Virus record (IMG/VR): IMGVR_UViG_3300023174_003901
Coordinates: 136,247-200,246 of that record
Source: a virus
Lineage: Duplodnaviria > Caudoviricetes
Length of the DNA stretch: 64,000 nucleotides
Reading direction: 5' to 3' (one strand)
Below, piece by piece: positions 114 through 2,914 of this stretch; the stretch's first letter is position 1, and each line of letters starts with the position of its first letter. The notes beneath the pieces were generated by a model. That model searched no databases. It saw nothing but the letters and a program-made list of their open reading frames with translations, and was not told the DNA's origin. The translations under genes were made by a program, and so were the position numbers.

Positions 114-422
114 TCAATTGCTTTGTATCAGCAATTTAATCAGCCCTGCGCTGTCAATAATACTTAGTATCAAGTAGTTGCCTAGGATACCAAAACTGCC
201 TCGCGTGTAAGCACACCAGGCCATGATCAGACATCCTGTGATGAATGCCGCATACAAGGGTATGAATGGCAAGTTGGGCACTGTGATAGCATAGGTTAGA
301 CTACAGCCGATGCTTATGACCCAACCCAACATCTCCAGGCAGAAACGCAGGGGATATTCGCGGTAGTCGGCTCGAACATAGTCCGCAACTGAACTGCGCC
401 ATTCTCGAAATGTTTGACTCAA
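114..422 (-). CDS. small multi-pass membrane protein
   Basis: 102 aa with about 3 hydrophobic segments; ATGA overlap with the upstream gene. Confidence 0.65.
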   Translation of the reverse strand: MSQTFREWRSSVADYVRADYREYPLRFCLEMLGWVISIGCSLTYAITVPNLPFIPLYAAFITGCLIMAWCAYTRGSFGILGNYLILSIIDSAGLIKLLIQSN

Positions 423-685
423 AGTGTTTTACCAACAGTTTCCAAGATGGTGTTGAGTTCGTCGTGATCTCGATTGGTCTCGCCCAATTTGGCCTTGTGT
501 GCAATCTTGATTGCTTTCTTTAAGGTAGCAGGTTTGATTTCTAATTCTTCAGCAATGGCCTTGATGGTGTCATTGAGGCCTTCGTTTAGGGTATCAACTT
601 CGTGTAGCACCTGCATGCCTTCGTTGATCAGTTGTGTGAGTTTGGCTTTGGCTTCGCCATTGAAAGTGCGGTTATAATCGCTCAT
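419..685 (-). CDS. small dsDNA-binding protein (T4 DsbA / GapR-like)
   Basis: Start revised to 685 (AAGGAG SD); helical LNDTIKAIAEELEIKPATLKKAIKIAHK pattern. Confidence 0.6.
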   Translation of the reverse strand: MSDYNRTFNGEAKAKLTQLINEGMQVLHEVDTLNEGLNDTIKAIAEELEIKPATLKKAIKIAHKAKLGETNRDHDELNTILETVGKTL

Positions 686-752: not shown

Positions 753-836
753 TGCTCACTTATGGGTTCCAGTAGCGAATTGGATGACCAAGGCAGCAGC
801 CGCCTACCCTCGCAACTAGTGCGGTCCTAAGGGTGT
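753..836 (-). ncRNA. candidate structured RNA (multi-stem, two possible loop-tail pseudoknots)
   Basis: Fills the intergenic gap; stems ACCCT/AGGGT, CGCA/TGCG, AGGC/GCCT, GGT-CA-TCCA/TGGAACC; 3' tail AGTGAGCA is complementary to loops CGCT and TGCT; followed by a U-rich run. Confidence 0.5.
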
Positions 837-838
837 TC

Positions 839-2914
839 TTATGATTGGATGATTTGTTTCAACAACGCTAGACGGCTTTCGCGCACAGGTGCTTTTGGTT
901 GCTGTTGTTGCTTGGCTTTTTCTTGTGCTCGGGCTTTTTCACCCACACGCTTAACCATGTCCTGATATTTTTTACCATAGTCGGCTTCTTTAGGTGGCAC
1001 GTAGTCGTCCTTGGCTTCCGGCAATACAGGATCCACATGCTTGCCTAAACGACTACGAATGTGATCTTTTTTGTCTTGGGTAGGAATAAGTTGTTGGACT
1101 GCACGAGGTCTATCTCCAGGCTTCCAATCTTTAACTTTGTTAATTTTATATCCTCTGCCAGGTTCCAACCCAAAAGTTTCTATGTCGCTTTTTGGCAGTC
1201 GAGAGCCAATGGTCACTGGCCCGTCTTCCGCCATGCCTTGCTTAATTGGAGGCAATCCTCTTAACTTGACATAAGCATCAAGAATATCGGATGCAAAATC
1301 TGTATCGTACATGAGCCAGTTTAATCGTTGACGACTTCCTAACTCTTGAATAGCAATGGCAAAAGCATATCGTTGCACTAAATTGTAAGAGGTAAGTTTA
1401 GGATGTTCGGCAAATACTTTTTCTGCTAAATCTTTCGCGTATTTACGGGCAAAAGAACGGCCAAAGCGTTCGCGAATTTTATCTGTTCTTTGTTGTGGAA
1501 TATTGTCTTCGCCTTCGTCCACACCTTGCTCAATCACATCAACACCGGCCTTGCTCTGCGGACTCAACATGCGTGTGATGTCTCTAGCATTGGCTTGAAT
1601 AATTTGCTTGCCAACTTCAACATTCTGTGGAGTAAGTTCTCTAGCCACTTTGTTAATTTTGTCAACGACAGGAAGCACTGGGCTTGGTCGAGAACCAAAC
1701 ATGCCTTCTTCCACGCCCTGGTCTTCAATCTGCATCGGATTCAAAGGATCATCTGTGTAAATAGTTCTTACATCGCTGCCTGCATCACTTAGTAATTCAT
1801 CAATCATGTCACTTACATCAGAATTATGCTGAGCCTGGAATCCGGCACGTTCACCTTGTGTGATATAAATCTTTGCTATTTTTGCTGCCTGATCTAGTTC
1901 AGACCTGCTGTAACCATCTTCGCCGCCAAACCTCTTGTAGTTGGCTAAAATTACTTTGCCTATCTCCGGTCCAGGGTCTGCCTTGGGCGCCGTCTTTTTG
2001 GCAATGCTAATGATTTGATCTAAATCCTCAATTTGATTTGTATTTTCAGGTGGCCCCATGCCTTGCCACACGTCTGAAACATATCCAGGTAATCCTGTGG
2101 TCTGTAAACTCTTGTTTATATCTACAAAAAATTTATTGATTTCCTTCACAGTCTTAACAATGTTTGTTGCAAGATAGGGGTAATTATTTGATGTGTATTC
2201 CTTTGCAGTGTCAAAGAACATTTCAGTAAAGCCCTGGCTTTGCCCAGAGTCAATTGAATCCCATCCATATTTTTTACCAATAGACATTAGTTGTTGTTCA
2301 ACTTGATCGGGAGTAAATTCTATTTTACCACTGAGAAATTGGTCAGGGTCGCCGATGTTGGTTGGTATTGGTTTGCCATTGCGGCTAACACCTTTGATTT
2401 TTTTTGACCCTTGCTCACTTGCAAAACTCACTGCTACATATCCAGTTACTGGAACATATTTAGGAGTTGATTTTTGTATGTTGCCCATCATCTTTTGAAA
2501 ACGTGGGTCGTCCGTTGGACCTTCCTCTACACCTTGCTCGTCTAGGCCACGATTGTGACGCCACTGACGAACGCTCTTGCCCCGGTCACGTGCGCTGCCT
2601 AGTTTGGGTCTTAGGTCGCCTCTTTTTTCAGTCACGTCTTGCTCGCCAAAGTCATCTGCCAACCGATCAAACACAATTTGTTCAATGCGTTCAAAGTCAT
2701 CGTCTGGATGGAGACCTGCGTCAATCACAACATCGTCATACATGTCTTGCACATATCGGCCAGCAGGAGTGTTGGCACTAAACAACTCATACAATGCGTC
2801 AAAGTCTTCGCGGGCCACAATGTTGCGCAGTTCCGCGTCAATTTCACTCATCACGCCTTCAGTCATGTCTTTTTCAAACACTTGGGGTAAGTTAAAAAAT
2901 TCGTTCAGTATCAT
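839..2914 (-). CDS. modular putative internal head (virion cargo) polyprotein
   Basis: 691 aa; leader MILNEFF; repeated linkers EQDVTE, EQGVEEG, DQGVEEG, EQGVDEG, KQGMAED. Confidence 0.6.
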   Translation of the reverse strand: MILNEFFNLPQVFEKDMTEGVMSEIDAELRNIVAREDFDALYELFSANTPAGRYVQDMYDDVVIDAGLHPDDDFERIEQIVFDRLADDFGEQDVTEKRGDLRPKLGSARDRGKSVRQWRHNRGLDEQGVEEGPTDDPRFQKMMGNIQKSTPKYVPVTGYVAVSFASEQGSKKIKGVSRNGKPIPTNIGDPDQFLSGKIEFTPDQVEQQLMSIGKKYGWDSIDSGQSQGFTEMFFDTAKEYTSNNYPYLATNIVKTVKEINKFFVDINKSLQTTGLPGYVSDVWQGMGPPENTNQIEDLDQIISIAKKTAPKADPGPEIGKVILANYKRFGGEDGYSRSELDQAAKIAKIYITQGERAGFQAQHNSDVSDMIDELLSDAGSDVRTIYTDDPLNPMQIEDQGVEEGMFGSRPSPVLPVVDKINKVARELTPQNVEVGKQIIQANARDITRMLSPQSKAGVDVIEQGVDEGEDNIPQQRTDKIRERFGRSFARKYAKDLAEKVFAEHPKLTSYNLVQRYAFAIAIQELGSRQRLNWLMYDTDFASDILDAYVKLRGLPPIKQGMAEDGPVTIGSRLPKSDIETFGLEPGRGYKINKVKDWKPGDRPRAVQQLIPTQDKKDHIRSRLGKHVDPVLPEAKDDYVPPKEADYGKKYQDMVKRVGEKARAQEKAKQQQQPKAPVRESRLALLKQIIQS

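Follow-up and report, generated by a model that had tools for sequence, protein, structure and literature searches.

A family of pseudoknotted RNAs in large aquatic phages with two arms complementary to helices 69 and 70 of 23S rRNA

Antisense RNAs of the CopA/CopT and RNA I/RNA II type present their recognition sequences in loops, and bacterial sRNAs derived from 3′ UTRs are also known. TURBS elements, found in caliciviruses and influenza B, pair with helix 26 of 18S rRNA upstream of an overlapping stop-start in eukaryotes. The known small ribozymes are knotted RNAs of small size with invariant unpaired bases and variable neighbours. Helix 69 of 23S rRNA, a modified hairpin of high stability that is buried in 70S ribosomes, forms a main intersubunit contact and acts in recycling, late 50S assembly and termination. 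Its action in termination and its modification late in assembly have been described (PMC5449589). The operator in the T4/T2 gene 32 mRNA involves an H-type pseudoknot followed by an A/U-rich stretch (PMC3014915), and the aptamer of the SAM/SAH riboswitch involves a C8:G17 pair closing G9-G10-C11-U12-N13-C14-C15-U16, a tail of A35-N36-U37-G38-G39-A40-G41-C42, and pairing of the ligand adenine with U16 (PMC6411933, PMC7367207). The toxins MazF-mt6 and MazF-mt3 are reported to cut UUCCU at the ribosomal A site (PMC5086665). A literature search found no description of a phage RNA pairing with the large-subunit core.

The RNA element and its family

The element occupies positions 753 to 836, on the minus strand, of the window (the whole 64,000-nt stretch of DNA analysed), and is the single match in its own genome, a 200-kb phage contig that is 58% complete. 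It takes up the space from the stop of a 691-aa gene to the promoter of a dsbA gene, with a GC content of 56% against 31% in the downstream spacer. From its 5′ end, the RNA consists of a P1 stem (806–834; 830–834 pairing with 806–810), whose length and register vary within the family, and a P1b hairpin (811–823; 820–823 pairing with 811–814); a P2 hairpin (791–805; 802–805 pairing with 791–794), whose 7-nt loop (795–801) makes the pseudoknot; a P3 stem with an internal loop (765–789; 787–789/765–767 and 781–784/768–771), the inner pairs of which covary; and a pseudoknot tail (753–760), followed by a U-rich run (744–752). The four stems, tail and U-run given in a preliminary description of this DNA are all present on the minus strand. 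Further 3′, on the same strand (691–733), lie a promoter-like −35 TTGCTT (728–733) and −10 TATAAT (705–710) and the Shine-Dalgarno (691–696) of the downstream gene; the hexamers, previously called a sigma70 promoter, are visible in the sequence, but the consensus scanner did not list them. The segments AGGCGU and ACGCC could pair with one another within the RNA, as an alternative to the pairing with 23S rRNA considered below.

The evidence for an RNA comes from homologues, since the folding energy of 753–836 alone is at chance level relative to shuffles (z = −0.25; family mean −0.5). Pattern scans of viral and metagenome contigs yielded at least 368 distinct parsed elements from large aquatic phage contigs, and loci collected via DsbA contain the same motif with different stem sequences. 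Among 72 diverse members, 96.4% of cells pair, compared with 76.7% in shuffles and 33–45% when the pairing partners are slid, and two-sided changes are present at nine of the 12 pairs (all four of P2, both inner pairs of P3 and three knot pairs), which bears out the earlier proposal of a conserved pseudoknotted RNA. G-U far exceeds A-C in the stems (72:11 in outer P3, 20:2 in inner P3 and 25:1 in P2), which places the RNA on the minus strand, in the same direction as the genes; this bias rules out a plus-strand mimic of rRNA, the difference in minimum free energy between strands being uninformative. The failure to assign a named Rfam family was reproduced with Rfam 15, in which neither the gathering threshold nor E ≤ 10 gave a match and the best scores (<17 bits) were at chance level. 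No published description of the element was found in the literature, the 10,000-candidate list of PMC10690425 being outside the comparison. The element is a real, uncatalogued family of knotted RNA, common to hundreds of large aquatic phages.

The knot in the window is formed by loop bases 2–4, G800-C799-U798, pairing with the end of the tail, C754-G755-A756. Across the family, 25 of 27 distinct loop/tail combinations pair, against a shuffle mean of 9.5 (p 5e-5), in a parse blind to knot pairing. The near-invariant AGUG of the tail (757–760), which most search patterns fixed, pairs with the CU of the P2 loop in one of two registers. Register A, which joins loop C6 to tail G4 and leaves the loop-end U unpaired, gives a contiguous 5-bp helix in 11 variant loop/tail types, with position 5 covarying between A:U and C:G; register B, with AGU paired to the last three loop bases for a helix of at most 6 bp, suits short-tail variants. 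Both are feasible for the loop type of this window. The loop ends in CU in 279 of the 294 elements where the patterns left it unconstrained, and the closing pair is C:G in 319 of 368. Pairing of the tail with the P2 loop had been anticipated in the preliminary description, but the register given there (UGCU:AGCA) holds in one of 82 non-main-type loops, and the additional P3 loop:tail pairing (CGCU:AGUG) is unsupported, with almost no covariation and disruption in the alternative loop classes.

This knot resembles the SAM/SAH riboswitch (RF01727), sharing the H-type fold, the closing C:G and the single G in loop 1, G-C-U:A-G-C pairs with a terminal C:G, and an insertion between hairpin and tail. 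In the main type, the core C[G-G-C-U-N-C-U]G and its tail A-G-U-G-A-G-C-A differ from the SAM/SAH core only in lacking the C14:G39 pair, two variants carry the full riboswitch tail AGUGGAGCA, and the loop-end U lies between the C:G closing pair and a C:G knot pair and is accompanied by an A-N-U linker, as at the ligand site. The two differ in that the phage P2 is Watson-Crick throughout, without the non-canonical P1 extension (A13-C26/A14-G25), the G16 triple on C21:G47 is lacking, and the five-pair knot with one looped-out base is replaced by four pairs plus a bulge (main type), five pairs without a bulge or the 6-bp alternative; the phage RNA also has extra domains antisense to 23S rRNA. The RF01727 model gave no match at the element, and the closest variant scored 8.7 bits where the cut-off is 40. 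The Shine-Dalgarno that the riboswitch has inside its knot is lacking in variant tails such as AGUGCC, and no metK was found downstream among the representatives scanned of 58 downstream families. A search of viral contigs for true SAM/SAH riboswitches or bridging forms returned at least 119 matches, none of them convincing. As judged from sequence, the likeness is one of resemblance and not of membership.

Several other kinds of element were considered. Small self-cleaving ribozymes (HDV-like, twister, twister sister, pistol, hatchet and hammerhead), one of the earlier suggestions, are disfavoured by the lack of any Rfam model match, of circularly permuted forms and of multiple copies, and we take the helix order P1, P2, knot, P3 to fit no known topology of this kind. 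An intrinsic terminator was rejected, none being called on the minus strand; a U-run (at least five U within 8 nt) is present in 60 of 191 homologues, against 8 of 191 in the control, and the tail separates it from P3. A tRNA or tRNA-like element was also rejected, as there is no tRNA in the window, the position equivalent to A58 is C or U in the P3 loop and the ends are unpaired. A purine-rich RAAY precedes P1 in 161 of 191 homologues, compared with 61–69 in controls.

Genomic setting

The 691-aa gene upstream (839–2914, minus strand) has its stop 6 nt before arm 1 of the RNA and belongs to no Pfam or PHROG family; the protein contains repeated QGVEEG / DVTE-type linkers. Downstream lies the gene of an 88-aa DsbA-like DNA-binding protein (419–685, minus strand), the positional marker of the RNA family, which is followed outside the window by a probable DNA polymerase gene, an order that is the same in cultured relatives. 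The element is mostly 0.05–4.8 kb before dsbA, and where the fetched locus includes dsbA this is downstream, on the same strand and within 4.8 kb in 66/66 and 53/53 cases of two sets; some loci comprise more than 5 kb and have no dsbA. The gene is immediately next to the element in only 71 of 263 loci, with others intervening in about 73%, so the late-to-early operon junction envisaged in the preliminary description is not the general setting.

A promoter motif is present between the element and the ATG in 67 of the 71 loci where dsbA is next, there as a −10-like hexamer, and in 135 of the 192 with other genes, and a Shine-Dalgarno motif in 29 of these 192. With downstream genes of 58 families, most of them with their own promoter motif after the element, the riboswitch proposed earlier is unlikely in the form of a 5′-leader switch. 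The upstream stop is within 20 nt of the element in 223 of 267 cases, in 36 of which it is a UAG inside arm 1; a signal for stop-codon readthrough or frameshifting was rejected, there being no frame bias (60/75/52). Because it adjoins the upstream stop and the next gene has its own promoter, the element is a 3′-end element and not the leader of the next gene.

Besides the contig of the window, 16 of 20 other large contigs have one strong match. Two of the 20 have two copies, one through an inverted duplication and one through a second copy without arm 1, and two have no model match yet contain diverged forms. The inverted duplication (L322, G021) is perfect over at least 954 bp and probably reflects an assembly or amplification artefact. 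The nearest cultured phages by DsbA are PA5oct, Paride, Atu_ph07, Phosso and SCTP-2, all at less than 50% identity; blastn of the element against cultured phages gave no match, no full element was found genome-wide in PA5oct, Atu_ph07, Phosso and SCTP-2, and none near dsbA in Paride. A scan of GTDB gave one true match, on a contig that also bears a phage dsbA, the other four being chance matches. Two contigs of a Haliscomenobacter MAG (L268 and L395) carry the element, one of them with a phage dsbA; they are probably phage contigs binned with the bacterium, or else a hint of the host, and the element was not found in the bacterial genomes of GTDB except on such probable phage contigs. Contigs from RNA libraries of relatives span the element, with DNA carry-over possible and ends and level unreadable from contigs.

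Other features were noted around the element. In 11 of 287 elements, a conserved micro-ORF of about 25 codons (YPVYPE...PYSPV type) has its end 5–11 nt ahead of arm 1 (L081, L101, L191, L283, L341, L362, L414, L470 and others); it is found 0.5–1.6 kb upstream in about 20 more, and is not found in the contig of the window. A protein family of 350–390 aa (L292:10606–11778 and L093:8199–9302, both minus strand, and relatives), with members 25–45% identical, no Pfam/PHROG match and unnamed viral Atlas clusters, is encoded directly after the element in about 25 of the 30 loci that have it. Other next genes include isocitrate lyase, fatty-acid desaturase, radical SAM proteins, terminase and, in 5 of 263 cases (L202, L221, L463, L476 and L495), S-adenosylhomocysteine hydrolase (ahcY); the adjacency in all five ahcY loci was rejected as a special link, since terminase (5/5) and two unknown families behave alike. 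In late-type genes of this contig and of family loci, TAAATA often stands some 5 nt ahead of the ATG and a Shine-Dalgarno is lacking, a pattern which suggests that late mRNAs are leaderless. The contig also encodes 24 tRNA genes and a permuted tmRNA with the tag ANDEQFALAA (G000:C1:99182–111086, outside the window).

Complementarity to 23S rRNA and its interpretation

Two segments of the RNA are complementary to adjacent stretches of 23S rRNA, for which the E. coli rrnH operon served as reference. Arm 1 (CCUUAGGACCG, 822–832, minus strand) is the exact complement of rrlH 1920–1930 (E. coli numbering), a stretch made up of helix 69's 3′ strand and the junction with helix 70, and arm 2, the P3 loop (772–780, minus strand), contains at 772–779 the exact complement of 1930–1937 (UUCGCUAC; match 1929/30–1937). 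The target stretch is identical in Halomonas and Terriglobus, and the joint probability of both arms matching adjacently by chance is about 2e-5. Past three mismatches, 811–818 in P1b extends arm 1 in register on 1909–1916 with one G-U, and no other site in the three rRNAs pairs as well as this duplex of arm 1 (−29.8 kcal/mol, against −20.4 elsewhere). In the family, the sequence GUU[A/G]C, complementary to 1910–1914, is present in 142 of 240 inserts and in 2 of 240 P3 control regions, the helix 69 window, one of 226, is ranked first for 16 and among the first three for 29 of the 37 members sampled, and arm 1 is also kept in 29 unique elements reached through dsbA loci. A lone 11-nt rRNA match is common by chance (about 200 per strand in this genome), so the case for a 23S target rests on conservation and adjacency. 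The invariance of the arms is partly built in, as the patterns fixed parts of them, a bias that the dsbA-anchored and cross-pattern sets reduce without removing, and not every substitution in arm 1 preserves wobble pairing (6 of 14). These two conserved arms antisense to helices 69–70, which hold the most conserved exposed bases of the RNA, are the main feature of the element, one which the first reading of this DNA overlooked.

The P3 loop falls into three main sequence classes across the family. The second (39 parsed members) is complementary to 1971–1976, within the neighbouring stretch 1968–1979, and its unconstrained 3′ flank matches 1970–1968 at about 60% for each position; the third (82 members) matches 1964–1969, a weaker and ambiguous 6-nt match (p about 0.06). 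The AGUCGUGCCC loop class also fits 2543–2552 with three wobbles, leaving its target ambiguous, and the CCGGGAAU class (two members) is without a clear rRNA target. Long forms carry AGGCGUCA, complementary to 1827–1834. Swapping of the P3 loop to a neighbouring rRNA strand fits a guide and is hard to explain by catalysis or descent alone.

Two complete genomes contain altered copies. The 352-kb genome G005 has, before dsbA, a second copy that has lost arm 1 (L402:1470–1565), in which arm 2 is extended and complementary to 1927–1936 (n = 1), and its full copy precedes a terminase-like gene some 190 kb distant. The 364-kb genome G004 has a diverged form (L028:2200–2325) with arm 1 and a complement to 1828–1835, in which the P2, P3 and knot portion is unrecognised by the family model.

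At 794–803 (minus strand) the P2 hairpin is also complementary to 519–528 of 16S rRNA, and this match to the 530 loop (517–528) extends over 10–11 nt (p about 0.02) in 174 of 177 main-type members. This match is probably due to chance, as it is lost in loop variants that keep the knot. A DNA decoy for an I-CeuI-type endonuclease site was rejected, the halves of the site being separated here and exchanged in order.

Pairing with 23S rRNA in some form is probable. More specifically, and with a little less than even confidence, we favour a 3′-UTR RNA that blocks or holds the 50S subunit, while this is free or immature, by pairing in trans with domain IV of 23S rRNA; structure, strand, conservation, complementarity and position are observed, and expression, release as a separate RNA, binding and an effect on the ribosome are inferred. 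The element would be transcribed as the 3′ end of the upstream transcript, in this phage a late one for a cargo protein, and might be released at the RAAY before P1 and then trimmed to the knot. Arm 1 and the P1b loop would invade helix 69 (1909–1930), the P3 loop would take the adjacent strand of helix 70 (1930–1937) or, in other members, the opposite strands (1964–1979), and P2 and the pseudoknot would act as a scaffold and cap the 3′ end. The likeliest target would be a free or immature 50S subunit or pre-23S rRNA in which helices 69–71 are open, and the likeliest effect may be to keep such subunits from maturing or from joining into 70S ribosomes, or to tag them for degradation. Action in trans is suited by the fact that neighbouring genes vary and the element stays, usually once per genome. 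Against such a blocker stands the stability of helix 69 and its burial in 70S ribosomes, and against inhibition the need of a late phage for working ribosomes, which makes the benefit doubtful.

The same complementarity could act in cis, with the element tethering the released 50S subunit after the upstream stop and promoting recycling or re-initiation on the next, often leaderless, gene, in the manner of a TURBS working on the large subunit. The closeness to upstream stops, some of them within arm 1, the scarcity of Shine-Dalgarno motifs in non-dsbA downstream genes and the role of helix 69 in termination (PMC5449589) are in line with this, but between the element and most of the genes that follow there is a separate promoter motif, a single copy per genome contrasts with hundreds of gene junctions, there is no frame or spacing rule, and the tight packing may just reflect a compact genome; we consider this reading unlikely. 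Distinctly unlikely is a protein-binding or 3′-protective element without rRNA pairing, such as a terminator-like end, a replication-protein operator as in T4 gene 32, or a decoy. Some 65 nt ahead of the start of dsbA, an H-type knot and then a U/A-rich stretch recall the gene 32 operator (PMC3014915), the position before dsbA and the polymerase is fixed, and U-runs are enriched over the control. Yet other genes mostly intervene, a promoter for dsbA alone follows the element, two thirds of homologues have no U-run, and the G-U bias places the RNA on the strand antisense to rRNA and not on the one mimicking it; this reading also leaves the complementarity unexplained.

Pairing in trans has also to be weighed against readings that centre on the knot. 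A new class of self-cleaving ribozyme, or else an orphan riboswitch, with the rRNA complement a relic of captured rDNA, would account for the small size, knot, many invariant unpaired bases and variable neighbours, and for the RAAY before P1, but Rfam gave no match, there is no permuted form and copies are mostly single; a relic would decay, and a P3 loop swapped among three unrelated classes is ill-suited to a catalytic loop and fits a guide, making this reading quite unlikely too. Improbable, in our view, is an RNA whose arms are guides and whose knot is an adenosine-cofactor pocket of SAM/SAH type, either gated by ligand or modifying or cutting 23S rRNA at the junction of helices 69 and 70, alone or with a protein. 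The near-identity of the cores, the two variants with the riboswitch tail and the 11 loop/tail types whose 5-bp knot leaves the conserved U free, as in the ligand site, count for it; the RF01727 scores, the loss of the extension and of the G16 triple partner, the short-tail variants that suit a 6-bp register consuming the U, and the lack of SAM-gene enrichment, with ahcY as rare as noted above, count against. The narrower form of a guide RNA or trans-acting ribozyme, with arms that would clamp the helix 69–70 junction and a knot that would hold an adenosine cofactor to sense it or modify the ribosome, appears highly improbable.

If pairing in trans is correct, a natural 85-nt RNA that opens helix 69 would represent a new kind of control of translation or ribosome biogenesis and a natural model for antisense antibacterials. 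With the target conserved in the bacteria checked, the claim is addressable with E. coli ribosomes despite the uncultured host.

Comparison with known systems

The E. coli 23S sequence reads UUCCU at 1939–1943, adjoining the arm 2 target, and we take this to be the cut site of the MazF-mt toxins. These are proteins and not RNA, but they act on a neighbouring conserved part of 23S rRNA and thereby show that the region is reachable and important.

The T4/T2 gene 32 operator shares with the phage element the H-type pseudoknot, the A/U-rich stretch and a location near DNA-replication genes. Unlike that operator, the element is not placed before an SSB gene, has two extra domains, and is followed by varying genes with their own promoter, and so is not part of their leader. 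TURBS are similar in being viral RNA elements at a stop codon with complementarity to host rRNA, but theirs is to the small subunit and upstream of an overlapping stop-start, whereas the phage element is complementary to large-subunit rRNA, lies downstream of the stop and follows no stop-start or frame rule.

The RNA family is widespread and falls outside the definitions of its nearest known kinds. What it has in common with base-pairing antisense sRNAs is conserved, exposed segments complementary to a defined RNA target. Like CopA/CopT, RNA I/RNA II and the 3′-UTR sRNAs, it displays recognition loops and is located in a 3′ UTR, and the main P3 loop contains the YUNR motif of such loops, UUCG; unlike them, it has rRNA as its candidate target, is not encoded opposite that target, has a pseudoknot and no terminator hairpin, and presents two separate arms in parallel order.
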